Of a stretch of 64,000 nucleotides of DNA, positions 13,001 through 48,838 are shown in pieces (positions within the stretch are counted from its first letter, which is position 1; each line of letters begins with the position of its first letter). A program made the translations under genes and the position numbers. The notes below the pieces were generated by a model. That model was given only the letters and a program-made list of their open reading frames with translations. It had not been told where the DNA came from and ran no database searches. Source of the stretch: Anthoceros angustus (Eukaryota > Plantae > Anthocerotophyta); assembly GCA_010909165.1 (NCBI GenBank), contig MU008176.1:364856-428855 (forward strand), read 5' to 3'.

Positions 13001-16000
13001 TGCCGTAATAGGACCCCCCTGTGAGGTGCTTACCCCCTCCTCCGTAGGCTACACACAGTTGCACGGCCTATGTCCTCGCGAGGCGCCACGTCGCACATCG
13101 CCCCGCCTGCTTGGGTTGGTTGCGCCAATGTCGGTGGCGGTTTCGACTAGTAGTGGACTCCACCGTCGTTGGTCGGCAACATGTAGGTGAGGTTTCGGCT
13201 ACCTCGGTTCTTTGCTTCCTTCCGCTCGGTAGGCCCTTCCGCTACTCGATCGTGGTCCTGCTACCCCTTCCCTTTGTCTTTTCGGCCCGGCGTGCCTCAT
13301 CCGCTCCGCTTATATCGCTCCGCTAGCTTATGGGCCTTTTCCACGAGGCCGCTTCACGCTCTGGGCTCGCAACAACTCCCCGCATCTCTGGTTCGTCTCG
13401 TGGGCATCCTTAATTTGAGCCATGAGTGCTTCCTGGCTCGTCATGGCTTGCAACTTCTCACAGGCCTGCACCTTCTTGAATCTTGGCCCTTATTTCCTCT
13501 AGGTTCCGCTTGTCTTCCTCCATTGCTTGCGCTTGGCCTCCTCTTCACAAACTGGCCTTCACCACTTCCTCCGTCGCCCGCACATCGAGCGTGAGAGCTA
13601 AAGCCGCTTGATCCAACAACCGCTTGGGCCCGGATCATCGGCGTGGTCGGCTCTGCAAGTCCACTTGTTGTGGCCCCGCGACGCCATCCCTCCGTCGAGA
13701 ACTTTCCTCCCAGCAGTGCGCACCCTCACCAATTCGGTTGCATCCACCTCTGTTGCGGTGGAGTCCCCTTGAAAATCTCTTCCCATCGAGGAGGGTCCGC
13801 CTCGAGGTCGCCCCTAAACCCTCCGGAGTTGATTCATCATCGCATCCAGTCCAAAAATTGTCCTCGGATCGCGCCTCCTCTTCTGCCACCTCCAAGCTGC
13901 CGTTTGGCTTTCATCAGGCGCCTGCTGACTGTGACGCGCATCCGCCTTCACCTTTTGCCGATGCCGCCTTCACCCCGGTCTTCCTCCTTTTCTTTGGTGG
14001 GAATTTCCTTCTCTTCCTCCGAACTGCCTGTCGCCACCGACTCCCAGCTATCCGATTTTTCCTCCTTGGGCTCCTCCGCCTTCCATTTCACCTCCCTAAC
14101 CGGCTTCCACATGTGGAGGAGGCTACAATCTCCACCTCCGCAGCTAGCGTAAACATAAAGATGGACCGAAATGGTGAGATTAGAGAGGCCGAGGCGAGGA
14201 AATCAAGTTCAACCTCTCTTCACACAACTTGTCAAGAGAATTCGCAATCGATCTTCGCCTTGACCACTTCATGAAGGAACGAAGTGGTCGACAAATAATC
14301 CCTTCTTGTCTGCGAAACATAGGAGCCACTGGCGGACCCATCAAGCTGCTGTTGCCAAATCCTCGTCAACCAGCCGTTGGGTTCGCGACCACGCCCGCTT
14401 TAACGTATGCTGCCGCGTGCTTCTTTTCTGACGGCTCCATCACCAACCCGCCCGCCTCCTCTTCCGCCCATACACCCTCTAACCAGCCTGGTCCCAACTC
14501 GCTCTAAATCCCCTTTGGTGTTGTCCTTGGTGTGCGCACACTCTGCATCCCTGTGTTCATGTAATTCCACCGCTCTTCCATGAAACCCGGCTTGACTCCT
14601 TCACAGCTCACTCGAACTTTCCAATGATCCATGTTCGGCCATTGGGCAAGCACAATTCGGTGGTGACCTTGGCGCCATCCCTCTCACGGTCTTCACGGTC
14701 TCGCGCCACAAACCAACGCCACCTCGCTGCGAATTTCACGGAGGTCGGTCTCGGGGTTCCTACCTCGGTTCTTTGCTTCCTTCCGCTCGGTAGGCCCTTC
14801 CGCTACTCGATCGTGGTCCTGCTACCCGCTTCCCTTCCCTTTGTCTTTTCGGCCCGGCCACGTGCCTCATCCGCTCCGCTTATATCGCTCCGCTAGCTTA
14901 TGGGCCTTTTCCACGAGGCCGCTTCACGCTCTGGGCAACAACTCCCCTGCATCTCTGGTTCGTCTCGTGGGCATCCTTAATTTGAGCCATGAGTGCTTCC
15001 TGCTCGTCATGGCTTGCAACTTCTCACAGGCCTGCACAAATCTTCTTGAATCTTGGCCCTTATTTCCTCTAGGTTCCGCTTGTCTTCCTCCGTTGCTTGC
15101 GCTTGGCCTCCTCGTCAAACTGGCCTTCACCACTTCCTCCGTCGCCCCTGCACAGGCGGTGAGAGCTAAAGCCGCTTGATCCAACAAATCGCTTGGGCCC
15201 GGATCGCGTGGTCGGCTCACGCAAGTCCACTTGTTGTGGCGGCCCACGCCATCCCTCATCGAGAACTTTCCTCCCAGCAGTGCGCACCCTCACCAATTGG
15301 TTGCATCCACCTCTGTTGCGGTGGAGTCCCCTTGAAAATCTCTTCCCATCTTTGAGGAGGGTCCGCCTCAGGTCGCCTAAACCCTCGGAGTTGATTCATC
15401 ATCGCATCCGGTCAAAATTGTCCTCGGATCGCGCCTCCTCTTCGCCACCTCCAAGCTGCCGTTTGGCTTTCATTTTCATGGCGTTTTTGACGTGGCCGCA
15501 TCCGCCTTCACCTTTTTCGGATGCCTTCACCCCGGTCTTCCTCCTCTTTGGTGGAATTTCCTTCTCCTCCTCCAGGCGCCTGTCGCCACCGACTCCCAGC
15601 TATCCGATTTTTCCTCCTTGGGCTCCTCCGCCTTCCATTTCACCTCCCTAACCGGCTTCCACATGTGGAGGAGGCTACAATCTCCACCTCCGCAGCTAGC
15701 GTAAACATAAAGATGGACCGAAATGGTGAGATTAGAGAGGCCGAGGCGAGGAAATCAAGTTCAACCTCTCTTCACACAACTTGTCAAGAGAATTCGCAAT
15801 CGATCTTCGCCTTGACCACTTCATGAAGGAGCGGCAAGTGGTCGACAAATAATCCCTTCTTGTCTGCGAAACATAGGAGCCACTGGCGGACCCATCAAGC
15901 TGCTGTTGCCAAATCCTCGTCAACCAGCCGTTGGGTTCGCGACCACGCCCGCTTTAACGTATGCTGCCGCGTGCTTCTTTTCTGACGGCTCCATCACCAA

Positions 16001-17442
16001 CCCGCCCGCCTCCTCTTCGCCACCTCCAAGCCTTTGGCTTTCATTTTTCTGGCGCCCGTTTTCGACGTGGCCGCATCCACCTTCACCTTTTTCGATGCCT
16101 TCACCCCGGTCTTCCTCCTTTTCTTTGGTGGGAATTTCCTTCTCCTCCTCCAGCGCCACCGACTATCCGATTTTTCCTCCTTGGGCTCCTCCGCCTTCCA
16201 TTTCACCTCCCTAACCGGCTTCCACATGTGGAGGAGGCTACAATCTCCACCTGGCGGGGCAGTTAGCGTAAACATAAAGATGGACGAAATGGTGAGATTA
16301 GAGAGGGGGCGAGGAAATCAAGTTCAACCTCTCTTCACACAACTTGTCAAGAGAATTCGCAATCGATCTTCGCCTTGACCACTTCATGAAGGAGCGGCAA
16401 GTGGTCGACAAATAATCCCTTCTTGTCTGCGAAACATAGGAACCACGGCGGACCCATCAAGCTGCTGTTGCCAAATCCCTCGTCAACCAGTTGGGTTCGC
16501 GTCGCCCGCTTTAACGGGCGGCTGCTTCTGCCGTGCTTCTTTTCTGGGCGGCTCCATCACCAACCCGCCCGCCTCCTCCTTGCGACACCCTCTAACCAGC
16601 TCCGGTCCCAATCCTGCGGCTTCGCTCTAAATCCCCTTTGGTGTTGTCCTTGGTGTGCGCACACTCTGCATCCCTGTGTTCATGTAATTCCACCGCTCTT
16701 CCATGAAACCCGGCTTGACTCCTTCACAGCTCACTCGAACTTTCCAATGATCCATGTTCGGCCATTGGGCAAGCACAATTCGGTGGTGACCTTGGCGCCA
16801 TCCCTCTCACGGTCTTCACGGTCTCGCGCCACAAACCAACGCCACCTCGCTGCGAATTTCACGGAGGTCGGTCTCGGGGTTCCTACCTCCTCGGCAAGGC
16901 GCGCTGTCGCCGCGCCTTCCTCCTCTGCGTCGCGCCTCGCGATGTCGGCGACGGGGTTGAGCTCCTTCCCGTCGTTGCGCCTCGCGCCTCCTGCGATCAC
17001 GGTGCAACGCCTCGACGCCGCGCTCACCGTCCGCGCTCGCTCGCTCCCGTCCGGCCGTTGCGCTCCGTTGTTTGAGCGGGATTACATCATTTCCTAGGGT
17101 TAAGTTTCCCGGGTTCCCCTACTCTGTTACCTCGACCGCTTCCACATCCCAATCCACAACCCACACTCATTCGCTACTGCTTGGTCGACCCCAACTTATA
17201 GACTCTAATTATTCCAAACCCCCTATCTCACATATATAGACTTTTTAGGGAACATTAGTCCATGGGCCAAGGAACACCAAATTCCGGACCATTTATTTTC
17301 TAACCTAAAATCAAAACAAAAGAACTCCATAGGCCAAGGACATTTTTCTATGAATATCCCACTACCAACCGACTTATTTTCACACCACTCCCAAAAACAA
17401 AAAAAACACTTCGCAGACAGGGTTTCAAGACTAGATCCTACA
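10020..17442 (-). repeat. 3' LTR of the gypsy element (7.4 kb; ~3.8 kb core plus three internal tandem duplications)
   Basis: Minus strand begins TGTAGGATC right after the PPT. The plus-strand start TGTGGGTGTGGATTCGTG matches 23736. Duplication junctions lie near 12141, 14761 and 16010. Confidence 0.88.
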
Positions 17443-17444
17443 TA

Positions 17445-17454
17445 CTCCCTTCTC
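17445..17454 (-). other. Polypurine tract
   Basis: GAGAAGGGAG on the minus strand, 2 nt before the LTR TG; overlaps a probable pol stop codon (AAA TGA GAA GGG AG). Confidence 0.8.
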
Positions 17455-20400
17455 ATTTGTTGGCGTCCTCGCCAACTTATGTATAATACTTCTTGACCCT
17501 CCACCCATTGACTCGGGTTGGTAGTGGAGCCACCTAGTTCTTGCGGTAGCTGCATCCATTTGAAAGACTTATATGGCCCCATCCATCGAAGGTGGAGCTT
17601 GCCGGAAAGTGCATGTACCTATTGTCGTGCAATGAGGCCAAGTCACCGGAACTACCCACTCTTGCTTCCAACCATTGTCATGCCATATTTTCCGTTTACT
17701 TTGAATATCACGCATGACGCTCAACGCTCCCTATCCTCTGTATGTTTAGCGGTGACCAGGCGTTCGGTGACTTTCCTCGCCAACTTATGTATAATACTTC
17801 TTGACCCTCCACCCATTGACTCGGGTTGGTAGTGGAGCCACCTAGTTCTTGCGGTTATCGGATCCATTTGAAGAACCTATGGCCCCATCCATCGAAGGTG
17901 GAGCTTGCCGGAAAGTGCATGTACCTATTGTCGTAAATTGAGGCCAAGTCACAATACCACTCTTGCTTCCATGGCTGTCATGCCATATTTTCCGTTTCTT
18001 TGAATATCACGCATGACGCTCACGCCTGCCCTATCCTCTGTATGTTTAGCGAAGCGACCAGGCGTTCGGTGACTTTCCTCTCGCCATGCGGTTAGTTTCG
18101 GATACGCAGGTGGGAATTTCAAACTCAATAGGCATTAGGAGAATGGCCGTAGGTGAGGTAGTACGGTGTTTGTTGCGTTGTTATTTTCTGCGATCCTGTA
18201 TGCCTGAGCGGAGTGAAGCTTAAGATCCCAGACGCGTATTCCACCGTTAGCTTGTTGAGGATCCCGCAAGCGCCTTTTCCGTTAAGCCATTTGCCTTGGG
18301 ATTATAAGGAGTCGTTTTCGTATAACGTTGAAGTAGATCGTCATATGAGATATAACCGTTGACGAAATGTGACCCGTCACAAGCTCCAAGGGACGACCAT
18401 ATCGGTGATAATCATTCATAGAGGAACGCCACTACATGAGTGTGTCTACTGCGGTGCTTGGGCTTCCACCATACGCGTGTCTGTGCCACGAGGATGTATT
18501 GGTTTTGTCGCGTCCTCGTTTTGGTATGGGACCAACAAAGTCTATTCCCCATTTCTCGAATGGCGCGGGGCCAATATCGGAACCATTGGCCATTGAGTGG
18601 TTGCGACGGTTTCCCAACCCTCGGCGTGCATCGCGTTTAACAAACTCCTAGCATCACGATGCATGGTTTGCCACCGATTACCCGTTTCAAGCACCTTCTT
18701 GCACGTGATATGTGCGAAAATGTCCTCCGCTTCCCCTCGTGCATCTCCACAAGACTCGGATAACTGCTCCTTGTTACCCATAACTGTCCGCCCATCCGGT
18801 CCCGACATTGATTGTCTTTGCGTCGTACAAGCGGATAATAGTGCACAACGCCTTGGGTTTCAAAGATCCGATGGTATTTTCTGCTTCCAAGAATTCCATC
18901 ATCTCCTCGTGAGTGGGCCTTGTGTATCCGTTCTCCCTTCTCATTTCTGCCGAGCCACCATTTACCCTCGCCTTATGGTTCGTGCTTCCTCTAACGCCGC
19001 AGAGCTTCATCGGGAAAATCGTCGTTTTGGTCTGTGTAACCTCCTCTGCCTCTCGAAATGTAATCTGCATTCACATGTTTACTCCTCCTGGTCTCCACCG
19101 TGAGCGTGAATTCTTGCGAGTAGGATCCATCTTGCTATGCGTCCGGACAAGTCGGTTTGTTTACGGTGTTTGAGGCGAAGTGGTCCACATGGAAGACGAA
19201 CTCGTGGGATAGCAAATAGTGACGAAACTTGCGAACCGAGTACACCATCCCAGCGCCTCCTCTCGGTGGTGGTATACTTCTTCTGCTGAGCTGCCTCCTG
19301 CATAATAGATTGGATAATCGTGCTTCTTGTCATCCCTTTGGCTTAGAATGGTACCGATTGCATAGGCGAAACGTCTACAAACACGTGGAACTTCTTGTTC
19401 GGTCGGCCCCAGCGTGGGTCTTGTGATCGGTGGTGCGAAGATCATTGAAGGCCTCCTCTCGTTTTGCGTCCATTCCACTCCGGTCCTTGGGCAGAAGCGG
19501 AGCTGCCTTCCGGAGAAATTCTTCACAAACCTTCGATAATAGCCTACCATTCCGAGGAATCCCTAAGCTCCTTGATTGTGGTAGGTGGCTTGAGGCGGTA
19601 ATGATTTTGACCTTATCCGGGTCGACCTCTATAAAATGCGGTGCCCCAACAAAATACCCTCGGCATGCCGAAATAACATTTCGGGATGTAGACACAATTG
19701 GTCTGTTCCGCACATTTGCGAAGGTGGTTGAGGTGATCTTCGCCGCTCCAAACACGCAGAAGTCATCCGAAGACCTCCATGAAGTCCCTAAGGTATTCCT
19801 TGAAAATCTTGACAACCCGCATGAAGGATCACGGTGCCCTGTTAATCCGAACGCTCGCTTTGTAGGCATAGGTTCCCGATCGTAGTGAAGGGTTAGGGGC
19901 CAATCACTCTCCACGAGATGTGTTATACCGAATACCCATCCGAACGAGTAGACCATTCTCCTGCAACTAAGTCCGATGTTGTCTATGAATGGAAGCGGGT
20001 AATGGTCTTTTTGGTCACCTTGTTTAACTTCCTCCAATCTGGCGGGTATCTTCCCTTACGCTTTTGGGAACCACCACAATTGGGGCTACCCACCGATGTC
20101 ACAATAGGATATATGACGCGCCGCAAGTAAAGCTCCAATTGTTCCTTTACCTTCAGAATACTTTGGATTTAGCTTGTATTGCGGTATCCGACCGCACACC
20201 CGGCTCGAGATCAATCTTGTGCTCCCCACTCCCTCGGTATACCCCTTCATGTCCGTAACGTCAAAAGCAAAACGTGGATAAATTCCATGTTGTTTCATAC
20301 CCCTTTCCAAGTCTGCATTCATCCTGCTCGAAAACTTAAGGACCTTGCCGCAACACTTCCACATCCTTGACCTCATCCGTCTGCATTCCACTCTCTCTCC

Positions 20401-23400
20401 ACCGGCGGATGTGATGCGAACCCTTCCTCATTGTCTTGGTTCTCCTTGCGCATTCCCCATTCCGGAATAGGTCGTCGAGGTAAACGTGAGACACCCTCCT
20501 CGCACCCTCAAGTTTGTCCGGATCGTCGCTCCCGGCTCGACCACCTCTACTTCTGTTCCTCGACCTCCGTCTGGTCTCCTCGGTCCGACCACCGGGTTGT
20601 CAATTGTGACTCCATAGCACCCTAATAGGTTGATGGAATGGGAATATCTCTCCGAATCGTCCTCTTCATCGACCACGAAATATGTGCGAATGGGAATTTC
20701 TCCTTCTCATCCTCTCCCCAGGTATCTTGAGGTGTATCCCTCCGTTTCGTGGGTGTCTCCCTGCGTCGTATCTCTGCTCCAAGTCAAACATATCCTTCCT
20801 CCTTAATTTTGGGGTCCCAGAGGTTTGAATCCCACTTCCTTTCTCGCCCATTTGAAGGTGCAACGTGCCCCATACATCCATGTTCGTCAATGAGAACCTC
20901 ATACCGGCGCTTTTTGTTTAATGACCACGTAGTCCATGAGGTGCGGAATGGTACCAATATGGGTTAGGACTCCGTCACTCCCTCGCGCCATTTTGGACAT
21001 GTCCGCCACCGCAACACCTTTGATGTATGTTCTATCGCAACCCAAGCTTAGGCGGTCTCCTCTGTCATGATGTTGACTCGACCCGGAATCTAGCGGCACC
21101 TTCTTGATTACACATCCCGCAATTTCTATCAGCTCAGCAGACCCCAGTCCATCATGGCCACCATATTCACAAAGAAGGATTCGGCCTTGGGGTGGAAAGG
21201 TTCCGTCTCTTCTTGGGTTGTGCCGCCTTCAATGCCCCAGTTCTTTGGCGGTCGGATTGTCCTCGAGAGCTTCAACGTTATCATGAACTTTTGGTCCATG
21301 ATAGCCCGCCAAATTGAAAGGAACACTGTTTTCTGCTTTCTCCTTGCCAACCCCACCGTCATTTCGAGCGCTATGTTGATGTTGCGGTCGTTGAAGCAGG
21401 TGGCGGTAGGTGGGTCGGTGGGTCGATGGCCAAAAGGTACGATGCTGAGTCTGTTCGATTCTTGTCGGATCATATCCATAACCTTCCTCGACATCCGGAA
21501 ACGCCGACTCATCCTTTTTTCCTCTTGCGGGTTTTCGCCCCATGTGTCGACTCGAGTCCCACGCCGTTTGTCCTCGTTGCACTTCACCCTCGAATCCAGC
21601 GGTCTCGGTAAGGGAGTTACACGTGATGCCATCCAAATCGCAACCCTCGCGTTAAGTGTGGCGTTCGTGCCTTGCTCCCGTCCATTTTGGATTCGCATGC
21701 CCTTTTCTTTTGACTCCCATACGAGTCCCTCGTTTTGTGGTTGGACTTCTTCCTTCCCGCTTTGATGAAGACGCCTCTTCCTCCTCACTTGCGGACGTTA
21801 TGGAAGCTCCCACTCCGTTCTTCTTCCTTTTTTCCCGCTCCCCTTCTTAGGGTGTCCGCCTTCCTCCCGCGTCCAACAGCCCATCGCAGGAGTTCCGTAA
21901 TACCCACTATCCACATCCCCAACCCTTCCGGGCTCCTCAAGACAGCCTCGGAATCCTCCCATACGCCCATGAGCGCATCTTGACTTGCATTGCAGCGGCT
22001 TTGTCATGCGGGGTGGGTCGCCAGAATCGGAGGTTGAGCGATCCTCACTGTTTTCGGTGTCCGCAGGAGCGCTGCCACGTGACGATTGCTTGCGGTCCAC
22101 ACACGACCTTTCAAAATCACCATTCCCTGGCGAGATGCGGAGGGGCATCCATCGCAAGATGCCCGAACCCTCGGCAATTGTAACACTGACGGCACTCATT
22201 TGCCCGGGTTCCTTGCCATCGATTGCGAATGCCCATGCACGTGGGGTTTCGCAAACTCGAGGTACAAAGTTTTGGTACCAGATCGGTGTTGCCTCTTGAA
22301 TTTGGTATGTATCTTCCAAGCACATCTCCTCATCCTCTTCCTCGTAGCCCGATGGTTGCACTTTTGTTTGTGGACGTTCGACCTCGAGTGCCCTGTCCAC
22401 AAGTTGAGCGAAGAGATTCGCCGCTCCGAGCAACCCTTCTTCTATCATGGTCCTTGATGGCATTAAGATGGAGTTTCTCGGTTTGACCATCATTTCCTCC
22501 ATCTTGTTCCTTGTTGCTCCACTTTTTGGCTGCTTCCACCTCTCTTCTCACCGCTCCGTCCTTTCGTGCATATAGCTCCTTCCCTTTTGCACGTCGTCTT
22601 GTTTCCCGTCATTTTTCCCTTCTTCCTTCTATCCCTTGATTGCGCTCACCTTCGAATTCTCCTCCGAATCCTCACCGGTCTCCTCTTCCGTGGAGCTACC
22701 CGAGTCGGTTGAAAACTATCCTCCGCTGAATCCATCGGAGGACGAATAGTACTTCTTCTTCTTTTGTATTTCTTTTTGTCCTTCCGCCCTTGTTCGAGTT
22801 CTTCTTCTCTTCGCGTTGGACTCCTCATAGTTCGAGGCTGATCGCCCGATCCAAATCTTTCTCACCGAGACGACGTGCCTTCCCATCTCGCCCAATCCTC
22901 TTGCAAACCGAATGGCCATTAGCTCAGTGCGGACCGGCCCGATCCGTGAGGTGTGGAACCTTTCCACATAAGCTGCAGGTCTCCTTCTTCCCTCTCCGCC
23001 TCGAGTTTGGACAAGACATATCCTTCCACATCGACCCCTCCGAACCTTTCACAAAAGCTCTCTTCAAGGCCCCAAAGTAGGCGGGGTGTGGCGAAGCTAT
23101 GTACTCCGCTTGTACCACTTGGCGCCGCTCGCGTAAGACTCCATAAAGCAGTGGGCACGATCGCATCCTCACGGTTGGCAAGTCGCTCAAAACGCCGACA
23201 AACTCGTCGGGATCCTCATGGCCCTTCTTTTCTCGCACAACGGTAAGATTGTAGTAGTAACGAGCACCGAGTATCGCCATTGGTAGTACTTTCAACGATC
23301 ATGCGGTAGTTGACGCACCACGTGATGACCTCTACATTCACGAAGTTCGACTGGACCGCAGCTGGTCTAGGCACTCGGGAGCAGAGATCAAAAGACAAAG

Positions 23401-23640
23401 TGGAATCGGGGTACCTGGCCCCTTGTACCGCTTCTGTAGTCGAGAGTTGGGAATCTGAATCCGATAAGATCGAATTCCCAACTCCGAGTCGACTCCCTGC
23501 CCCTCTTCCTCGTCCAACAGGTGTGATCTCCGCCCGTGCTCTCCTCGTAACTCTCTGCAATCTTTCCGCTGCTTGGCGTTGCCGTCTTGCCAGAAGCGTT
23601 TCCCCACAGTCAGATCCAGAATCGCTTGTCTCCACCCGAG
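17455..23640 (-). pseudogene. gag-pol of the gypsy element (many frameshifts as assembled)
   Basis: Gag-like region with HEDPDEF; CCHC knuckle CYNCRGFGHLAMD; protease VPLDSGSS; RT KDHYPLPFID and DDFCVFG; RH GYYRRFVKNFS, AIGTILSQ, YPIYYA; integrase PFEKWGIDFVGP; C-terminal RWMGPYK (GPY/F motif). Confidence 0.9.
17466..18085. repeat. 308-bp tandem duplication of the integrase C-terminus
   Basis: TCCTCGCCAACTTATGTATAATACTTC starts at both 17466 and 17774. Confidence 0.85.
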
Positions 23641-23714
23641 GCATCCATCTATCAATCTAGTAATGCTAGACTCTACTTAGGCTATGGTTAGTTCTACCTC
23701 GTCCTGATGAGCAT

Positions 23715-23732
23715 TCCCCGGCAACGGCGCCA
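23715..23732 (-). other. Primer-binding site complementary to tRNA-Asp
   Basis: TGGCGCCGTTGCCGGGGA, 3 nt downstream of the 5' LTR CA; it is the complement of the plant tRNA-Asp(GUC) 3' end TCCCCGGCAACGGCGCCA, the PBS used by Athila elements. Confidence 0.92.
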
Positions 23733-23735
23733 AAA

Positions 23736-26700
23736 TGTGGAGTGTGGATTCGTGTCCGGGGACACCGTGAGGTCCACATTCACCCTCAATGTCGTTGTAG
23801 GCTTAGGATTCGCTCCCAAGGGAATGGTTTGTGCCAAGAGACGCTAACTTCTATCATCGACCTTCACCTAAGTCAAGACTTACTTGCTATTACTCCTCTT
23901 ACCTATCTACTCAACCACTACTACCCCGACTTGTCTAGCCACCTGCTCTTATTCCACGACCGCAAATCTTATTCCACGGCGGTGGCTCTCACGGTAGTTG
24001 CTTGACCACCGAGGTGGGTCCCACACCCAAACCCTAGCGACTTATTTCCGCGCGCGGATCTCGCCACGGCCCATCACGCACGGATCCGGCTTTATTCTCG
24101 CACTCCACACTTCATGCACACACACACCGATTCCTAGGGACCTAAATTCCACAAATCCTCACCGCTCCACACACACACAAGGCGCCACACTCACACAATT
24201 TTACAAGGGAACTGTCCCGACGCTTCCACCACGGTTTGGTTTCTTTTGGATTCACACAATCTCCACCGCTAGCCTCTCAATTAGTTCCCTTCTCAACCCC
24301 TCTCACACCTCGCATCGTCTGATGTTTAGTCACTCCTTCACCCAATCTTCTCCCTCTCTCTCTCTCTCAATTCGCCCACAGCTTCCAACCATCCACTCAA
24401 CACTTCTCTCAATTGAACACAACTAGCGGGGACAAGTGTGAAGGAAGAAGAACCCCAGGCCACAGCGCACGAGCAAGCTCCGGACCGCCCGCCAATCCCT
24501 TGGTTTCCTCCTCCTTTGTCAAAGATTGCTTTATCACCCCTCCTCCCCGGGAGCAAGCTCTCGACCACCCCTAGGGCGTCTCGCGCACCGCCTCAATCGG
24601 ACGTCTCCAACCAGCCACAGCGTGGGGATCTCAACCAGAATTATCGGCGTGAGGGACCTAATTCGCCCCTCTTATACATCGGTGGGGCACCACCGGATTT
24701 TAGGTCCTAAGATGGCTATCGCGAAGGACGCCCCACACCGGAGCGATCCTAGGTCGCAAGATCCTAACCAAATTATCTTTAGGTTGCTACCACCACCTCA
24801 CGCTATCTGCGCCCTACCTCGACTTGGCCTCGCCCCTCATCCTCCATTGCTGCCACGAGCTCTCCGCCCCGCTGGTCGGACGGGTTCTCCACACTACTTC
24901 CACCTCACCGCCACTGGACGTCGAATTTGAGGTGTACCACCTGGGCTTCCGCATCTTCCGGCCTTTATTGCCGAGGATTATTCGGCTCCTCCACCCAAGC
25001 TGGACCTCCTCCTCGCTCAACTCCTCCAAAGTCGCCTCCGCATAATAGGGAGCCAACCCCACACCGCGGTAGAAGTATGCACGGGTCCTCACTTGCGATG
25101 GGTAGGCCACGATCCCTCCTATTTCCACACGCACATGGGCGGTGAGGTTAAGCACGCGTTCTCCATTCACATATAGACCGAGCACATAAGTTTCCTCATC
25201 CATGTGCCGTAATATAATAGGACCCGCACTGAGAGGTGCTTACCCCTCCTCCCGTAGGCTACACACAGTTGCACAGCCTATGTCCTCGCGAGGCGCCACG
25301 TCTCGCCCGCCCCGCACCTTGGGTTGGTTGCGCCAATGTCGGTGGCGGTTTCGACTATGTAGTGGACTCCACGACCGTGCGCTCAAGAACGCGTAGGTGA
25401 GGTTTCGGCTACCTCGGTTGCTGCTTCCTTCCGTTCGGTAGTTCCTTCCGCTACCCGATCGTGGTCCTGCTACCCGCTTCCCCTTCCCTTTGTCTTTTCT
25501 GGCTCGGCCACGTGCCTCATCCCGCTCCCGTTTATACCGCTCCGCTAGCTTATGGGCCTTTTCCACTGAGGCCGCCTCCTGCTCCTGGGCTCGCAACAAC
25601 TCCCCCTGCATCTCCTGGTTCGTCTCGTGGGCATCCTTAATTTGAGCCATGAGTGCTTCCTGCTGGCTCGTCATGGCTTGCAACTTCTCACAGGCCTGCA
25701 CAAATCTTCTTGAATCTTGGCCCTTATTTCCTCTAGGTTCCGCTTGTCTTCCTCCGATTGCTTGCGCTTGGCCTCCTCTTCACAAACTGCCTTCACCACT
25801 TCCTCCGTCGCCCCTGAGCGGTGAGAGCTAAAGCCGCTTGATCCAACAACCGCTTGGGCGGATCATCGGCGTGGTCGCCCCGCAAGTCCACTTGTTGTGG
25901 CGGCCCCGCGCCGACGCCATCCCTCCGTCGAGAACTTTCCTCCCGCAGGTGCGCACCCTCACCAATTCGGTTGCATCCACCTCTGTTGCGCTGGAGTCCC
26001 CTTGAAAATCTCTTCCCATGCCGAGGAGGGTCCGCCTCGAGGTCGACCCTAAACCCTCCGGAGTTGATTCATCATCGCATCCAGTCGCAAAATTGTCCTC
26101 GGATCGCGCCTCCTCTTCGCCACCTCCAAGCTGGTTTGGCTTTCATTTTCAGGCGCCTGCTGACTGGTGACGCGCATCCGCCTTCACCTTTTGCCGATGC
26201 CGCCTTCACCCCGGTCTTCCTCCTTTTCTTTGGTGGGAATTTCCTTCTCCTCCTCCAGCCTGCGCCACCGACTCCCGGCTATCCGATTTTTCCTCCTTGG
26301 GCTCCTCCGCCTTCCATTTCACCTCCCTAACCGGCTTCCACATGTGGAGGAGGCTACAATCTCCACCTCGCAGCTTAGCGTAAACATAAAGATGGACCAG
26401 AAATGGTGAGATTAGAGAGGGCCGAGGGGCAGAGGAAATCAGGTTCAACCTCTCTTCACACAACTTGTCGAAGAGAATTCGCCCCCAATCGATCTTCGCC
26501 CCCTTGACCACTTCATGAAGGAACAGCAGCAAGTGGTCAGACAAATAATCCTGCTTCTTGTGCTGCAGGAAACATAGGAGCCACCTGGCCAGACCCATCA
26601 ACTGCGCTGTTGCCAAATCCCTCGTCAACCAGCCGTTGGGTTCGCGAATTACGCCCGCTTTAACCAGGGCGGCTGCTGCTGCTGCCGTGCTTCTTTTCCT

Positions 26701-28792
26701 GGACGGCTCCATCACCAACCCGCCCGCCTCCTCCTTGCTTCGCCCATACACCCTTCTAACCAGCCTGTGTCCCAATCCTGCGGCGCTCTAAATCCCCTTT
26801 GTTTGTCCTTGGTGTGCGCACTCTGCACAGTCCGAGTTCATGTAATTCCACCGCTCTTCCATGAAACCCGGCTTGACTCCTTCACCACCTCCCATCGAAC
26901 TTTCCAATGATCCATGTTCGGCCATTGGGCAAGCACAATTCGGTGGTGACCTTGGGCGCCATCCCTCTCACGGTCTTCTGGTCTCGCGCCACAAACCAAC
27001 GCCACCTCGCTGCGAATTTCACGGTCGGTCTCGAGTTCCTACCTCCTCGGCAAGGGCGCGCTGTCGCGCCTTCCTCCTCTGCGTCGCGCCTCGCGATGTC
27101 GGCGGGGTTGAGCTCCTTCCCGTCGTTGCGCCTCGCGCCTCCTGCGATCACGGTGCCCCGGACACGGCTCCTCGACGTCGCCACCTGCCCGCCGCTCCTC
27201 CCGCCGTTGCGCTCCGTTGTTTGAGCAGGATTACATTTCCTAGGGTTAAGTTTCCCGGGTTCCCCTACTCTGTTCGACCTCTACGACCGCTTCCACATCC
27301 CAATCCACAACCCCACACTCATTCGCTGGTCGACCCCAACTTATAGACTATCACACTCTAATTATTCCAAACCCCCTATCTCACATATATAGACTTTTTA
27401 GGAACATTCCGAGTCCATGGGCCAAGGAACACCAAATTCCGGACCATTTATTTTCTAACTTAAAAATCAAAACAAGAAAAGAATCCATAGGCCAAGGGCA
27501 TTTCTTCTATAAATACCTCCGCCTTCCATTTCACCTCCCTAACCGGCTTCCACATGTGGAGGAGGCTACAATCTCCACCTCTGGCGGGGCAGTTAGCGTA
27601 AACATAAAGATGGACCGAAATGGTGAGATTAGAGGGCCGAGGCGGAGGAATCAAGTTCAACCTCTCTTCACACAACTTGTCGAGAATTCGCTAATCGATC
27701 TTCGCCCCTTGACCACTTCATGAAGGAGCAGAAGTGGTCGGACAAATAATCACACTTCTTGTCTGCGAAACATAGGAGCCACTGGCGGACCCATCAAGCT
27801 GTTGCCAAATCCCTCGTCAACCGGCCGTTGGGTTCGGTCGCTTTAACGGGCGGTGCTTTTGCCGTGCTTCTTTTCTGGGCTCCATCACCAACCCGCCTCC
27901 TCCTTGCCCGCCCGCCCATACACCCTTCTAACCGACTCCGGTCCCAATCCTGCGGCGCTCTAAATCCCCTTTGTCCTTGGTGTGCGCACACTCTGCACCA
28001 GTCCAGTTCATGTAATTCCACCGCTCTTCCATGAAACCCGGCTTGACTCCTTCACACTCGCTCGAACTTTCCAATGATCCATGTTCGGCCATTGGGCAAG
28101 CACAATTTCGGTGGTGACCTTGGGCGCCATCCTCTCACGGTCTTCTGGTCTCGCGCCACAAACCAACGCCACCTCGCTGCGAATTTCACGGTCGGTCTCG
28201 AGTTCCTACCTCCTCGGCCAGGCGCTGTCATCGCGCCTTCCTCCTCTGCGTCGCGCCTCGCGATGTCGGAGTTGAGCTCCTTCCCGTCGTTGCGCCTCGC
28301 GCCCTCCTGCGATCACGGTGCCCCGGACACGGCTCCTCGACCGTCGCTTGACCGTCGTCGCTCGGCTCGCTCCGTCCGTTGCGCTCCGTTGTTTGAGCAG
28401 GATTACATTTCCTAGGGTTAAGTTTCCCGGGTTCCCCTACTCTACCTCTCGGCTTCCACATCCCAATCCACAACCCCACACTCATTCTACCGCGTCGGTC
28501 GACCCCAACTTATAGACTATCACACTCTAATTATTCCAAACCCCCTATCTCACATATATAGACTTTTTAGGGAACATTCCAGTCCATGGGCCAAGGAACA
28601 CCAAATTCCGGACCATTTATTTTCTTAAAAATCAAAACAAGAAAAGAATCCATAGGCCAAGGGCATTTCTTCTATAAATACCTCGCCTACTACCAACCCG
28701 ACTTATTTTCACACCACGGATCCCAAAAAAAACAAAAAAAAAACACTTCCGGGCACGTCCCAACAGGGGTTTCCAAGTCCAGATCGTCTACA
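23736..28792 (-). repeat. 5' LTR of the gypsy element (5.06 kb; ~3.8 kb core plus one ~1.2-kb duplication)
   Basis: Starts TGTAGACG (28792), ends CTCCACA next to the PBS. 26304-27515 is repeated at about 27516-28685. Confidence 0.9.
25240..27184 (-). pseudogene. LTR-embedded accessory ORF of unknown function (conserved domain, basic linker, coiled coil); boundaries approximate
   Basis: Colinear ORF pieces 26882..27184, 26206..26775 and 25240..25701: NGWLTRDL, DYLSDHLLLFLHEVVKGAKIDWGRILFDKLCEERLNL, ISPFLVHLYVYA, then QEALMAQIKDAHETNQEMQGELLRAQEQE. Partial copies recur in the 3' LTR (e.g. 16731..17027, 15994..16275, 11923..12153). Confidence 0.65.
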
Positions 28793-29271
28793 GAGTGTTA
28801 GACGTGATTTATTACAACATATCAAAATATGTTATGAAGAGTGCCCTAAAAGCAGGTTATGAAGAGTGCCCTAAAATAACATACTTGAAAGTCATGCATC
28901 TTCTAGAAAGTATCTTCTAGAAAGTATCTTCTAGAAAGTCCAAAAGTAAAGGGCAAGGTCAAGTAACCAATAGGAATCAAGGTCAAGTGACCAGTAGGAT
29001 CAAAGGCTAGGACTATATAAGGCCAAGCCCACCTACTTGTAAGGTGTGGTGTGTGCAAGTGTCCTTGTGTGCTTGTGTGCTAGTTTCTAGTGTGCCTAGT
29101 GCATATAACCCATATTGTATGGGAGTGTTGTGTTCCCTTTCTATAAAGTCTCAGCTCTTTTCCTAACATCCACAAGCATCAAGCATAAGCCCATGCAGCA
29201 GGTGAGTAGACTCACAAACATGGTTGGTGCCAAATTGCTTCTCGATCCCGTCTGTCGACAATTGGAATGGG

Positions 29272-30993
29272 CACATCATGAAACCTGCATTGTTTCTTTA
29301 AGAGAATTCGGAGATTGGGAGTGTTGAGATTGGGAGAGTTAATATGGAGTAACCTCGTAGGGCACTAACAACCTGATGAACCTGCATTGTTTCTTTAAGA
29401 GAATTCGGAGATTGGGAGTGTTGAGATTGGGAGTGTTAATATGGAGTAACCCCGTAGGGCACTAACAACCTGATGAACCCGTTTCTTTAAGAGAATTCGG
29501 AGATTGGGAGTGTTGAGATTGGGAGTGTTAATATGGAGTAACCATTAGAAAACAAACAACGATCGTCACATCATGAAACCCATTGTTTCTTTAAGAGAAT
29601 TCGGAGATTGGGAGTGTTGAGATTGGGAGTGTTAATATGGAGTAACCCCTCATGAAACCTGCATTGTTTCTTTAAGAGAATTCGGAGATTGGGAGTGTTG
29701 AGATTGGGAGTGTTAATATGGAGTAACCGTGAGGGTACTAACAACCCGATGAACTGCATTGTTTCTTTAAGAGAATTGAGATTGGGAGTGTTGAGATTGG
29801 GAGTGTTAATATGGAGTAACCGTGAGGGCACTAACAACTTTGATCGTCACATCATGAAACCTGCATTGTTTCTTTAAGAGAATTCGGAGATTGGGAGTGT
29901 TGAGATTGGGAGTGTTAATATGGAGTGTTAATATGGAGTAACCCCGTAGGGCACTAACAACCTGATGCGTCACATCATGAAACCTGCATTGTTTCTTTAA
30001 GAGAATTCGGAGATTGGGAGTGTTGAGATTGGGAGTGTTAATATGGAGTAACCGTAGTAATCTACTAACGATCGTCACATCATGAACTGCATTGTTTCTT
30101 TAAGAGAATTGAGATTGGGTGTTAATATGGAGTAACCGTAAGTACTAACAACTGATCGTCACATCATGAAACCTGCATTGTTTCTTTAAGAGAATTCGGA
30201 GATTGGGAGTGTTGAGATTGGGAGTGTTAATATGGAGTAACCCCGTAGGGCACTAACAACGTGATGCGTCTTTAAGAGAATTCGGAGATTGGGAGTGTTG
30301 AGATTGGGAGTGTTAATATGGAGTAACATCATGAAACCTGCATTGTTTCTTTAAGAGAATTCGGAGATTGGGAGTGTTGAGATTGGGAGTGTTAATATGG
30401 AGTAACCCCGTAGGGCACTAACAACCTGATGCGTCTTTAAGAGAATTCGGAGATTGGGAGTGTTGAGATTGGGAGTGTTAATATGGAGTAACCCCGTAGG
30501 GCACTAACAACCTGATGCGTCACATCATGAAACTTGCATTGTTTCTTTAAGAGAATTCGGAGATTGGGAGTGTTAATATGGAGTAACCCCGTAGGGCACT
30601 AACAACCTGATGCGTCACATCATGAAACCTGCATTGTTTCTTTAAGAGAATTCGGAGATTGGGAGTGTTGAGATTGGGAGTGTTAATGGAGTAACCCCGT
30701 AGGGCACTAACAACTGATCGTCACATCATGAACTGCATTGTTTCTTTAAGAATTGGAGATTGGGAGTGTTAATATGGAGTAACAGAGCACTAACAACGAT
30801 CGTCACATCATGAAACACGCATTGTTTCTTTAAGAGAATTCGGAGATTGGGAGTGTTAATATGGAGTAACCCCGTAGGGCACTAACAACCTGATGCGTCA
30901 CATCATGAAACCTGCATTGTTTCTTTAAGAGAATTCGGAGATTGGGAGTGTGAATATGGAGTAACCCCGTAGGGCACTAACAACCTGATGCGT
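29272..30993. repeat. Tandem satellite, ~110-bp unit, ~18 copies
   Basis: Consensus CACATCATGAAACCTGCATTGTTTCTTTAAGAGAATTCGGAGATTGGGAGTGTTGAGATTGGGAGTGTTAATATGGAGTAACCCCGTAGGGCACTAACAACCTGATGCGT; contains an internal 15-bp doublet and usually an EcoRI site. Confidence 0.95.
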
Positions 30994-31671
30994 CCCAAGA
31001 ACGCTTGACTGTGGAGTTCCAATGAACCCATGTGTGGATGTCACTCCACCAACTTCAGGCTCTATCTCCCATGTCGTGTTTGTCAAAGGTGTCAAAGGTC
31101 AGGAGGCTGGTGCTGAAGTGACCGCAGAAAGTGTTTCAGTTGTAGAAGAGCCTCGTAGTAGTTAGCACACTCTTTTTTCTTAAGTGACGTGTTACCGAGG
31201 TTGGAGACAATCTGACAGTGGCACCAAGTAGAAATCTCATTAATTAGCATGAGCATCTTACTAGCTGGTCCTCAAGTTCTCTGCTCCAAGGGCTTGTAAG
31301 CTCTTCAGCACTCGTAAGCATACATGCAAGCAAACCAGCAGTTGGCAACCTGGCATGCGTGTTTTCCATTCATAAGCACTGGAAATGTAAGCTCAAGACA
31401 GGCCATGCCTCACAGGATCTGGTTTTACCCAGCTATTTAATAAATTTGGTGAAGACAAGCAAGATGTGGCCAGGCAGTCGAATCTTCTGCACCCTGCAGG
31501 TTCAACTGACAACGTCACATACGCATACCACGTGCGGTTCGCATCTGCTGGTGGTTTTGATTGGGTGATTCTTAACGCTCTAACCTATTGACAATCAGCA
31601 ATCCTGAGTTTCCTAATCAGTTGTCAGAATTCTGACGACTCTGAAGTCCTATACAGACGATCATCCAAATT

Positions 31672-45977: not shown

Positions 45978-47853
45978 TCAGGATTGCGGGATATACGTCT
46001 TCCACCAGTCCGTGCCGGCGACGCCGTCCAGATCGTCGGCGGCCAGCCAGCGCCAGTCCGGCTCCAGCAGCCCCTGGGAGCAGTCGCTGGGGCAGCCCGG
46101 AAGACCCACGATCCGGGGCTCGGCTCGGACCAGGCACGCTTTCCTGGAGTCTCCGGGGAGGTCCCTGTACAGCCTGGCCTCCGTTGCGGGCCCGTAGGGG
46201 CACCTCTGCTCGGGACTCGGGGCCTGGGTGAGCTCCAAATGCTCTTCATCGGAGGCGCCTGTGTGGTAGAATTGCGGGTCCTGGATGCCGTGATACCTCA
46301 CCAGAATCACCGCGAACGCCAGCATCCTGCCGTCTATGCTGCAGGTCCAGCCCACCTCCCTGTGCACCCTCTCCACCATCTCCCGCATCTCGCCGTCGTG
46401 AGCCTGCATGTACTCCAGCACCTCCGGCAGATCCTGGAAGCTGTAGGCGACGCGCACCACGCAGATTGTATCAGATGTTTTGTAAGCTTCGCAAACGTGT
46501 CACGAAAATTGAGAGACAAGCGAGACAAGACAAAGACGCGTTGTCGGTGTTAGAGACTGAGAGGCAGCGCGCGACATACAAGTGGTCGGTCTCCATGAAA
46601 TGCCGCCCCTTCTTGAGCAGCGGGTAGAAGAATTGGATGAAGGGCGAGTCCTGGAGGATGAGGACGCGCTGAGTGAGGAGGACGCCGCAGAGGCGGCCGC
46701 CGCCGAGCCCGCCGTCCACGACCATCTCGTACTTGAAGTCGTTCTTGTGGGTCTCGTTGAGGCGGTCGCCGAGGCGGATTCCCTCCTTCTCCTCCAGCTC
46801 GCGGATGATGGGCTGCGGGACGTGGCTCCATCTGGTGACCCTGGCGTCCAGCATTCGTCCCAGCCCGTTGGTCATGCGGTGCAGGCGGAGCCGGGGGCTG
46901 CTCACCCAGTTGGACAGCCGGAGCCAGAAGTTGGTGGTGGCGCCGCGGAAGACGGCCTTGGGGATCTTCTCCTCCCATTTCCTGCCGCTGGCCCGGGCCT
47001 CCGCCATCTGGTCCCGGGACTGCATGTACGCCGGACGAAGATCCAACATGTCGGGCACCGCCAGGTCCGCGTCCAGCTCCTCCGTCACGTGCGGGCTCCA
47101 GACGAGGAAGTTGGACCTCCCGCCCTCCGCCATCCCCTCCCGCGCCAGGGCGTGGTCGCAGGTGTTGAACAAGAACTCCACCCTCACGTCCCGGAGCCGG
47201 AATCGGTCCAGCGTCGCCTGCAGGAAGGAGGCGGCGTCGTTGGCGCGGTCCAGCCGGTACTGCGACTTCATGGAGTGGGTGCCGTAGCGGAAGAACACCT
47301 TGCCGCCCACCACCCGGAAGTGCGCGCAGCAGGCCATGAGCGACGAGGTGTTGGCGACCGCGTCGCGCACATGGCGCACGGACCAGGCGCTGCGCGTGCG
47401 CGGTGAGCCCCCGAGGCGATCCTGCTCCTGCACCGGCGCCCAGCCCCGGGTGAAGCTCTTCACCAGCTGCAGCGCCTGGTGGAGCCTGGGGTCGGAGAGG
47501 TCGAATTCCGGGCTGGCCGCCCGCAGCTCCGCCAGGTCCTGCCCCTCGATCCGCACCCCCTTCACCCGCCCGTGCCGCACGTCGGAGGCGCTCATGTGCT
47601 GCGGCAAGCGCACCCTCCCCGGCCCCGCCCCGGGCCCCAGGAGCTCTGGGCCGCGGCCAGCAGCAGCTTCCGGCAGCCCCGGCAGCCCGAGCCGCAGCCG
47701 CCCCCGGTACCTCATCTCCACAGCGCTGGCCGCCGGCTCCCCGTAGTTGATGAGCGTGCAGGAGCTGGTGTAGGACACCAGCAGCAGCGACAAGGTGATG
47801 CCGAGGGGCACCAGGATGGCCACAACCATCAGCGACACTGTGGCTCCCTTCAT
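45978..47853 (-). CDS. Glycosyltransferase family 90 (CAP10/KDELC-like) type II membrane protein, paralog 1; exons 47853-46580 and 46440-45978; true start may be further upstream
   Basis: N-terminal TM segment; KIPKAVFRGATT, RLRLH, KYEMVVDG..GRL..QDSPFIQFFYPLLK.G.HF match the CAP10 core; a 139-bp phase-2 GT-AG intron restores DHFFQDLPEV. Confidence 0.82.
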
Positions 47854-48838
47854 CGCTCCGGATCCGCGCTTCGACCTCACCGACCTCAAGCTTCCGCCTT
47901 GCTCCGACCACGACTCATCCTCCTCCTCGTCCTGTTGCCCAACATGTATGTGATCTCCACTTCGAGCCTGGAGGCCGCTCCGACTCGGTCGCGGCGCCCT
48001 GTTCCCATAACTCCAGCGTCCGCTCGGACCATGGAGACCGACACCAACGCCAACACCTCCCCTCCCTCCCTCTCTCTCTCTCTCTAGACATTTTCCTTGT
48101 CTAGTACACGAGGCCACACCGACGTCGGCGGTGACCTTAAAATGGCCTCAACTCTCCTCTCTCTAGACGCAGTTTTGAGTCTGTTCGTCTGTTACAGACC
48201 GCACGGGCAGGCACACTGTATTACGTCTGCTCGGTGCTGGACACCCTGCTCGCACTTCACTCAAACTTTTCCTTCCACACTTGCTGCTCAAACAAGCACA
48301 ATATCGTACGGCGAGGTTGGTGGACCCCACCTCGCCCATGTCATGCTTATGCGATAAGCCATGAAGGCATGCATCTATGTACATCTACCCGCCTTGCGCC
48401 ACCGGCAACGGGCACCACACCACCCTCAAATTTAAAATTTGGCTTTCCTCCTCCCTGTTGCAAGTCAAGGCATATGCCTCATGCATGGACATGATATAGA
48501 TAAGGTGGGACCTCTAACCTGGCCTCCCAAGCCGCGACCACCACCCGTGCGCACTCACCACCGTGGTTGCAACACTCATGTCGTCCTCCGTTTCTAATTC
48601 TAATATTTTAATTTATTTAGTTTGTTTTATTAGGCGTGAGGCTCACCCTTTGACCAAGGACCAAGTTGTTGGGGAATATTTTCTCCCTTTAGGAGCACAA
48701 GCTGCCTCTTCTATTCTTCTATTGCAGCACAAGCTGGCTGTTAGATTTTCCCTTTTTATTCATTGAAAAAATAGGTATCAAAAGTTTTTTTAACTAAGTG
48801 TGTATTCAACAGGTAAAAAATAACATCCTTAGAACATG

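Follow-up and report, generated by a model that had tools for sequence, protein, structure and literature searches.

Genes lodged in long terminal repeats (LTRs) are known from animal retroviruses, in which MMTV sag, an ORF in U3 encoding a membrane superantigen, and HIV nef lie in the LTR and are present twice per element. Extra ORFs of LTR retrotransposons are classed in surveys as up- or downstream of the polyprotein (PMC6317226). In Athila, a sense extra ORF (Pfam ATHILA PF03078, Transposase_32 PF20167) is described as an env-like ORF between pol and the polypurine tract (PPT) (PMC7264820, PMC11728184, PMC6317226), and in sunflower its product has a Transposase_32 domain and a TM helix (PMC11728184). 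The extra ORFs of Retand, Grande, RIRE2, and PvRetro13 are antisense, between pol and the 3' LTR, and encode nuclear accessory proteins, some with Transposase_28 or an SMC-like coiled coil; that of Grande has its own promoter (PMC7264820). Plant mobile domain (PMD) proteins comprise those of Ogre extra ORFs, which are mostly antisense and internal (PMC6317226), Gypsy PMD-A, and the host proteins MAIN/MAIL1/MAIL2; the anti-silencing VANC proteins of MULEs are structural homologs of MAIN (PMC13547354). In CRM group A, the LTR holds the integrase tail (PMC3059260). Our literature search found no plant report of a gene inside a retrotransposon LTR.

Here, we describe a Ty3/gypsy element in a 64,000-nucleotide window of the Anthoceros angustus genome (contig MU008176.1), both LTRs of which hold a broken copy of what is likely a ~570-codon protein gene. 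The element resembles Athila in its non-chromovirus anatomy, 5-bp target-site duplication (TSD), lack of room for an aRH, and presumed tRNA-Asp-type primer-binding site (PBS). As in Athila, an accessory ORF follows pol in sense orientation, and the core of the encoded protein weakly matches Transposase_32. The element differs from Athila in that the ORF lies beyond the PPT, in both LTRs, and in that the match scores 12 bits against a cut-off of 45; unlike that of the sunflower Athila ORF, the product has no TM helix. With MMTV sag and HIV nef it shares the location in the LTR and the two copies per element, whereas those are animal retrovirus genes encoding unrelated proteins. Unlike the ORFs of Retand, Grande, RIRE2, and PvRetro13, and most PMD ORFs of Ogre, it is in sense orientation and inside the LTR. 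In contrast to CRM group A, the pol frame does not reach the PPT, and what the LTR contains is a gene apart from pol that is likely self-contained.

Results

The window contains a full Ty3/gypsy non-chromovirus LTR retrotransposon on the minus strand (10020..28792; all features below are on this strand unless stated otherwise), with TG...CA ends, a PBS, a PPT, and the TSD GAGTG on its left (10015..10019) and right (28793..28797). The insertion point corresponds to the border between the PPT and 3' LTR of a copia element, and the empty site is present in a short-read contig of run X1. As assembled, the 5' LTR (23736..28792) measures 5.06 kb and the 3' LTR (10020..17442) 7.42 kb, whereas the core without duplications is 3.8 kb. 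This is explained by internal tandem duplications, which are not alike in the two LTRs. As assessed by self-blastn, the 5' LTR consists of a ~3.84-kb core and a 1.2-kb internal tandem duplication (28688-27516 / 27524-26304), and the 3' LTR of four overlapping core segments, each with part of the frame described below. Substitutions between the two LTRs amount to at most ~2.3%, and the element is young.

The PBS (23732-23715), 3 nt past the 5' LTR, is the sole match in the window and was reached by none of 100 shuffles; we take it to be of the tRNA-Asp type. At the other end, the integrase frame, which ends with RVNGWRVKKYYT, stops at 17479-17477, and the PPT GAGAAGGGAG (17454-17445) lies 22 nt further on, followed by TA and then by the 3' LTR from the TG at 17442. 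There is therefore no pol-to-LTR interval. One short-read contig of run X2 holds an independent copy of the junction (pol end, PPT, and LTR start) and agrees with this arrangement, bearing out the claim of the first-pass annotation that pol ends essentially on the PPT and leaves no interval for an env-like ORF. Genuine, long LTRs are thus present, i.e. TG...CA repeats with a TSD, a PBS after the 5' LTR, and a PPT before the 3' LTR. The possibility that the apparent long LTR is a series of elements in tandem, each having short LTRs around an internal ORF, was rejected, the PPT, TG end, and TSD all being at the outer edge.

Between the LTRs lies gag-pol (17477..23656), with a zinc knuckle, protease, RT, RNase H, and integrase, many frameshifts, and a 310-bp tandem duplication at its integrase end. 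Pfam matched 3 of its 47 fragments (zf-CCHC, E 0.0095; RT_RNaseH, E 0.001; RT_RNaseH_2, E 0.037) and placed RNase H at 19562-19138. The protease, RT, and integrase were recognized by eye from motifs that we take to be diagnostic, and the resulting domain order, PR-RT-RH-INT, marks the element as Ty3/gypsy. Neither a second RNase H nor a chromodomain was matched by Pfam in the 47 fragments, a search of low sensitivity. Some 250 nt separate the end of RNase H from the start of integrase, and the PPT follows the pol stop at a distance of 22 nt, so that there is no room for an aRH. The description of the element as Athila-like is partly sustained, by the 5-bp TSD, the presumed PBS type, and the absence of space that a second RNase H would need. 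In Athila, 72% of elements have a tRNA-Asp PBS and 95% a 5-bp TSD, and a tRNA-Asp PBS also occurs in 37% of TatII. The aRH-less Tat Z1/Z2 elements, which exist in non-seed plants, are candidates as well (PMC10508981, PMC13468544).

The likely extent of the LTR-embedded gene is 25240..26962, from an ATG at 26962 to a stop at 25242-25240 (~574 codons), with several frame switches in the 5' LTR copy. ATG 26962 is the first in the protein-like frame common to all three covering copies, and the gene probably starts there, not at 27184, as had been proposed; there is no ATG at that position, which is probably ~220 nt too far upstream. Of the sense frame of some 600 codons originally reported in the ~3.8-kb LTR core, pieces were confirmed in both LTRs; a single continuous ORF was not. 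The cleanest stretches are stop-free over 193, 179, and 141 codons. The first of these (26787-26209) contains all the core peptides that had been singled out (NGWL..DL, DYLSDHLLL...CEERL, and ISPFLVHLYVY), within or around a conserved, probably helical core (26370..26760) with a weak Transposase_32 match and PMD/DUF1985-like neighbors. A basic, putatively NLS-like stretch, PPKKRRKTGVK, lies at 26204..26236, and its counterpart in the 3' LTR copy was found as annotated (PPKKRRKTGVKASKKVK). A coiled-coil-like segment, also as annotated, lies at 25805-25480, composed of 64-68% E/K/Q/R/A. Next to the gene is a further stop-free frame of 141 codons (24817..25239), without a Pfam match, which may be a C-terminal domain of the LTR gene or a second small ORF; copies are out of phase with one another at the junction. 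In agreement with the initial description, no TM helix was detected, the best 19-residue Kyte-Doolittle window scoring 1.28 when all frames are considered and ~1.0 for the core frame alone. The product is therefore not an envelope protein.

A diverged paralog was found on the plus strand in a second element (1142..3055), which begins like an LTR, has an ATG at 1910 and the shared core at 2092-2480, and is truncated against a copia fragment. Run X1 covers it in 9 of 30 bins, gaps in this coverage proving nothing. Its core is identical to that of the LTR gene at 26 of 68 residues (38%; tblastx E 1.6e-11), whereas DNA similarity is almost nil. At the first, second, and third codon positions, 31, 39, and 25 of 68 nucleotides are identical, in a segment chosen by protein similarity, which biases this test. 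The BLOSUM sum is 118 in frame, the five remaining frames giving -11 to 55, and pS is 0.74 vs a pN of 0.47, with synonymous sites saturated. An outside homolog, P0001, was retrieved from 1.84 billion representatives (E 7e-4, 33% identity), and the N-terminal starts are similar (MAPK, MGPK, or MGQK). This conservation spans ~130 codons, the linker and N terminus having no homolog support beyond the similar start. Other searches returned nothing: no homolog of the 193-aa core in two candidate sets (1863 proteins with lengths of 339-2000 aa and 310 with lengths of 106-338 aa), nothing except P0001 itself among 7996 candidates searched with a 4-row alignment, and no confirmed match in metagenome and viral contigs among 431 and 50 pattern matches for the core locus or 52 for the P0001 locus.

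Change between copies in the window leans synonymous: of the 13 sites that vary, 7 are synonymous (P 0.015-0.05, against an expected share of 0.23-0.29), as are 5 of the 6 sites at which at least two copies depart from the reference copy (P 0.003-0.009), these counts being small and partly sequencing error. The N-terminal segment, entered one base out of frame, contributed no variable site in 46 codon comparisons. All three sites that vary between copies in the coiled-coil segment are synonymous. Judged from the comparison with the paralog, the core is under purifying selection, and the coiled-coil segment may be too, with weak support from the copies. The core very probably is, or recently was, a selected gene.

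The paralog also bears on whether the frame belongs to the LTR. PMD genes are carried by MULEs in addition to Gypsy elements (PMC5418596), and an unrelated mobile element, such as one of the MULE type bearing a gene for a PMD or VANC-like protein, might have inserted into the U3 of a master copy and been a passenger since. A search for such nesting gave no sign of it: there are no flanking terminal inverted repeats or target duplication, and none of 14 direct and 10 inverted short repeat families convincingly brackets the frame. Moreover, the paralog has a leader resembling that of the LTR (score reached by 4 of 300 shuffles) and a similar leader-to-ATG distance (768 vs 662 nt in the LTR gene). 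We regard a nested passenger as highly improbable.

No intact copy of the gene was found. None of the six partial copies in the window reads through (one anchor was off-frame in that test), and about ten phase switches, counted by eye, remain after frame tracking over aligned copies, and one continuous ORF was not seen in the window. Depletion of stop triplets over 27184-25240 is not significant (z -0.78 vs -3.47 for pol). In all seven copy pairs, substitutions (1.7-2.4%) are outnumbered by gap openings (4.7-5.4%); of 92 gap events, 71 are private to one copy and 21 common to two. The gag-pol is as shattered as the LTR frame, whereas in neighboring host genes frames remain open over 503 and 558 codons. 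Comparison of the assembly with short-read contigs gave 202 indel rows, 12 of which were displayed. Because ~2% substitutions are accompanied by ~5% gap openings, and gag-pol is equally broken, the breaks look like long-read errors, and we infer that they are mostly errors of assembly. On this basis, the family probably has one intact ORF. The alternative is a decayed relic, i.e. an ancestral gene that is now non-coding U3 throughout the family, many of the breaks being real. It would account for the absence of read-through copies, the shared gap events, the weak stop depletion, and the tandem duplications that break the frame in both LTRs, but it sits poorly with the equally broken state of the essential gag-pol, given how few substitutions separate the two LTRs, with the synonymous lean of variable sites, and with the three long stop-free stretches. 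We consider it quite unlikely.

Family assignment of the LTR protein yielded leads. Transposase_32 (PF20167) matched the core at 12.3 bits (E 0.16, and 0.089 in a second test) over profile positions 79-168 of 177; the Pfam gathering cut-off of 45 bits was not reached, and only the second half of the domain is in frame. P0001 and the paralog have no Transposase_32 match. An Atlas language-model cluster near the core scores 0.83, with 10% of its members Transposase_32, and clusters near P0001 at 0.87 correspond to PMD (20% of members) and DUF1985 (82% of members), scores below 0.9 being leads only. No Pfam match to PMD was obtained for the LTR protein or the homologs tested, 20 further fragments gave chance-level Pfam rows only, and a PDB sequence search gave no match. 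Both AlphaFold2 models failed, with a pLDDT of 39.4 for P0001 (alignment of 4 rows) and of 36.9 for the frame of 141 aa (single sequence); the Foldseek rows obtained with the P0001 model carry no meaning, the best E being 5.6 and none reaching E <=0.001. The proposed comparison with PMD families thus produced a sub-threshold Transposase_32 match and a PMD lead, and neither a PMD profile match nor a usable fold.

These leads admit another reading, in which the family has a real, intact gene whose product acts in replication, as other Athila extra ORFs would, and not on chromatin; it might handle RNA, assist in assembling particles, or bring the integration complex into the nucleus. The sole sequence-family lead, Transposase_32, is a domain of Athila extra ORFs (PMC11728184), nuclear import and Rev/Tat-like roles are listed as options (PMC7264820), and the Athila domain has been predicted to form coiled-coil pentamers (PMC13547354). 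The missing TM helix speaks against an envelope protein, the named Atlas neighbors of P0001 include PMD, and location in the LTR, which would spread the gene to solo LTRs, seems better suited to a trans-acting regulator than to a particle component. A replication role is, in our judgment, unlikely.

Consensus matches suggest how the LTR might be transcribed. A TATATA box, ~230 nt into the LTR (28555..28560, duplicated at 27391-27386), is a candidate promoter of the LTR gene. Downstream of the frames are a TATAAGAGGGG box (24666..24676), a candidate promoter for genomic RNA, and an AATAAA, a candidate polyadenylation signal (24091..24096); all three are consensus matches only. Contigs of run X2, which may be DNA, touch 1 of 30 bins, which speaks neither for nor against expression. 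With a genomic RNA promoter downstream of the frames, the gene would be in U3 rather than R. Conversely, transcription of the genomic RNA might start after TATATA 28560; the LTR gene would then be its first cistron, situated in a very long R and acting in the manner of 5' extra ORFs such as Ogre ORF1 or Retrosat2 ORF0 rather than as a U3 gene of its own. The only canonical sense TATATA box is indeed upstream of the ORF, and Tekay, Ogre, and TatII elements frequently have a 5' extra ORF (PMC6317226 additional file 5; PMC3485330). However, this would require ~3.5 kb of minus-strand strong-stop DNA, and downstream of the frames the TATAAGAGGGG box, a GA repeat, and AATAAA succeed one another as they would in an ordinary U3-R-U5 end; we consider a long R very unlikely. 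As for how the gene came to be in U3, a shift of the PPT had been invoked that moved a 3' accessory ORF there. This is not supported, no relic PPT-TG having been found in the interval from the frames to the TATA-like box downstream of them; two purine runs with TG, at 24548 and 24368, are both downstream of that box.

Discussion

Our preferred, still tentative, explanation, for which we would claim a little less than an even balance of probability, is that the product of the LTR-embedded gene is a nuclear DNA- or chromatin-binding factor of the Transposase_32/PMD kind that keeps LTR promoters unsilenced; given a gene, a role in chromatin, argued by analogy, is evenly balanced. The family would have one ORF of ~570 codons or more, the breaks being mostly assembly errors. 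The gene would be its own unit in U3, with its TATA box ~230 nt from the LTR edge, and genomic RNA would start after the TATA-like box at 24676. Reverse transcription would put the gene in both LTRs, and a solo LTR would retain promoter, gene, and poly(A) signal. The protein might enter the nucleus through its basic stretch, oligomerize through its coiled coil, bind the LTRs of its own family, and oppose silencing by H3K27me3 or DNA methylation in trans, like MAIN/MAIL and VANC.

Several published observations make such a role conceivable. MAIN/MAIL are reported to oppose H3K27me3 at DNA motifs (10.1101/2024.09.27.615353), PMD is encoded by Gypsy elements and also by MULEs (PMC5418596), and long LTR elements of a hornwort carry H3K27me3 (PMC10952607). 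The LTR protein resembles PMD/VANC proteins in the PMD-cluster neighbor of P0001 (0.87), predicted helical core, basic stretch, and coiled coil (PMC5418596, PMC13547354, PMC6317226, 10.1101/2024.09.27.615353). It differs in having no Pfam PMD match, and the resemblance is a lead as to how the protein works, not membership. Our literature search found no report of an ATHILA protein inhibiting Pol V. More broadly, an old non-seed-plant Athila-like lineage might have made the LTR a complete PMD/VANC-like anti-silencing gene, with two copies per insertion and solo LTRs that stay working trans sources, a scenario that we find possible and on balance doubtful.

LTRs are regarded as non-coding, and hosts are considered to disarm elements by reducing them to solo LTRs. 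If a self-contained gene is in U3, solo LTRs would keep coding capacity and gene dose would rise with every recombination remnant, and the masked repeats of such genomes would hide many copies of genes for nuclear proteins. Because its product lacks a TM helix, which excludes a function as envelope protein, the LTR gene would also offer a clean handle on the role of Athila "env-like"/Transposase_32 proteins.

Results

Gene content and Streptophyta neighbours mark the host as a plant. Self-comparison revealed two repeat families in the window (10020-17412 and 23736-28749), which are the LTRs of a single minus-strand Ty3/gypsy element, Athila-like, running from 28792 to 10020. Both LTRs start with TG and end with CA, and a target duplication, GAGTG, lies at 10015-10019 and 28793-28797. 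The PBS (23732-23715), three bases after the 5' LTR, is the sole match in the window, and none arose in 100 shuffles. On the minus strand, the integrase frame stops at 17479-17477, the PPT occupies 17454-17445, and the 3' LTR starts at 17442; this junction of pol end, PPT, and LTR is also present in a contig from sequencing run X2. The element sits exactly at the PPT/3' LTR border of an internally deleted plus-strand copia element, which it splits (8157-10019 and 28793-29027), and the joined empty site, i.e. copia without the insertion, is present in a short-read contig from a second run, X1. These boundaries, together with the PBS, the PPT, and the independent contig junctions, identify the long repeat as a genuine LTR and bear out the first-pass annotation in that no interval separates pol from the LTR. 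Flanking repeats that would support a nested unrelated element were not found.

The assembled LTRs measure 5.06 kb (5', 28792-23736) and 7.42 kb (3', 17442-10020); internal tandem duplications, one in the former and three in the latter, extend a shared core of ∼3.84 kb, in line with the ∼3.8 kb previously estimated. Since these duplications are unlike between the two LTRs, and one is also found at the integrase end, they probably arose in the assembly, the less likely alternative being duplication after insertion. Between gag and protease (22900-21100, minus strand) lies a low-complexity stretch of unusual length (∼1.8 kb) that includes a zinc knuckle. A tandem array with a ∼100-bp unit (29272-30997) directly follows the copia 3' LTR.

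In all seven pairwise alignments between LTR segments, substitutions amount to 1.7-2.4%, versus 4.7-5.4% for gap openings. Of the 92 gap events in the ORF zone, 71 affect a single copy and the other 21 are common to two, and 202 indel rows separate the short-read contigs from the 5' LTR stretch. The gag-pol region is heavily frameshifted (Pfam recognised just 3 of 47 fragments), and host genes further along the window retain frames of 503 and 558 codons. We infer that this error pattern reflects long-read assembly without polishing of the repeats. In an element this young, the frame breaks are not readable as decay. Elsewhere in the window, two paralogous glycosyltransferase family 90-like genes (46471-48147, minus strand, and 62692-63444) show 73% DNA likeness over 760 bp, the former with a Pfam match (E 3.7e-5) within a long uninterrupted frame, and three ∼600-bp tandem units (49780-51578) lie between a long inverted repeat pair (48839-49606/51770-52703).

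The first ATG in the protein-like frame of the LTR, at 26962, is common to all three copies covering it. It lies ∼660 nt inside the LTR edge, downstream of a TATATA box, and from there to the stop at 25242-25240 there are ∼574 codons. All peptide motifs quoted for the ∼600-codon frame proposed earlier were found. None of the six partial copies in the window reads through without interruption, and about ten phase switches are left after frame tracking across copies. Stop codons are not significantly depleted across the ORF zone (z −0.78 and −1.74, versus −3.47 for pol). One continuous ORF is nonetheless likely. Because a second stop-free frame of 141 codons, ending at 24817, follows 3' of the stop, and the copies differ in phase at the junction, the LTR gene may be longer than ∼574 codons. 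No segment reaches transmembrane-level hydropathy, as first noted. The 3' end of the LTR (23746-23761) and the sequence just upstream of the LTR gene (27156-27171) form a 16-nt inverted repeat (88% complementary).

Among 1.84 billion representatives, the conserved core of the frame (∼26760-26370) has a sole match, P0001, a 244-aa protein from one 4.9-kb contig (E 7e-4, 33%). Searching the window with P0001 revealed a diverged paralog at 2092-2362 on the plus strand, which shares 38% identity with the LTR core over 68 residues and only short DNA matches. Identity at codon positions 1, 2, and 3 is 31, 39, and 25 of 68, with a pS of 0.74 and a pN of 0.47. The comparison scores 118 in frame, and the five remaining frames range from −11 to 55. 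All these figures are to be read knowing that choosing the paralog segment by protein similarity biases the test toward a coding outcome. Among clean codons of the window's own copies, numbers being small throughout, 7 of 13 variable sites are synonymous (expected share 0.23-0.29, P 0.015-0.05), as are 5 of the 6 at which at least two copies depart from the reference copy; in the coiled coil all three are. Taken together, these comparisons argue that the core is protein-coding.

Pfam returned only Transposase_32 for the core (E 0.16 and 0.089, 12 bits versus a cut-off of 45). Among language-model cluster neighbours (Atlas), unlabelled clusters, mostly from Streptophyta, rank first for the core, followed by a cluster at 0.83 with 10% Transposase_32 members; P0001 has a plant mobile domain (PMD) cluster (20% of members) and a DUF1985 cluster (82%), each at 0.87. 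We treat the Transposase_32, PMD, and DUF1985 matches as leads. Structure prediction for P0001 and the 141-codon frame yielded no usable fold, and neither protein searches nor metagenome/viral contig scans found homologs beyond P0001 and the paralog.

The paralog lies in a GC-rich, LTR-like block (1142-3055, plus strand) that ends abruptly against a copia integrase/RT fragment (3056-5200). The block begins TGTAAC, at which point two contigs diverge from the window. Its T-rich leader is similar to that of the element's LTR (score reached by 4 of 300 shuffles), its ATG is 768 nt from the block start, and a basic PKRRR stretch is close to its end; neither a PPT nor a PBS nor a second LTR was found to accompany it. 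The block suggests a second, diverged family sharing the LTR-gene layout. Contigs of high summed depth match the paralog only at its most conserved stretch (2290-2354) and diverge beyond it, a hint that a third related family exists.

Discussion

Both the anatomy of the observed arrangement and the coding character of its core hold up. Extra ORFs are mostly placed between pol and the 3' LTR (PMC7264820). The nearest plant precedent found for LTR-embedded coding is CRM group A, whose integrase tail runs into the 3' LTR (PMC3059260). Among the papers listed, no title or opening of an abstract describes a plant LTR that contains an entire gene; additional files 1 and 3 of PMC6317226 could hold LTR-overlapping ORFs.

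Along the LTR, the frame lies between the TATATA box and a TATAAGAGGGG box at 24676, beyond which come a GA repeat, the AATAAA at 24096, and finally the end of the LTR. This order, in which the motifs are consensus matches rather than mapped transcript starts, fits an LTR gene that would lie inside U3 with its own promoter, the ordinary genomic-RNA promoter standing behind it. The first-pass annotation had invoked a PPT shift that moved the ORF into U3; a relic PPT supporting such a shift was not found. The plus strand, opposite to the element, carries a canonical CTATAAATA box (28670-28682, duplicated at 27505-27517) that faces outward at a distance of 120 nt from the edge of the LTR. It is a possible antisense promoter; the 3' LTR version reads differently.

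Given a gene, the odds are about even that its product would be nuclear and trans-acting, with an anti-silencing or activating role, a proposal prompted by a basic stretch and a coiled coil in a protein that lacks a transmembrane helix, and by the PMD lead in combination with the published roles of MAIN/MAIL (10.1101/2024.09.27.615353) and VANC (PMC13547354). The LTR frame represents a variant form of the Athila-type accessory ORF. Through reverse transcription each LTR would receive a copy of the gene, which would also survive complete in a solo LTR.
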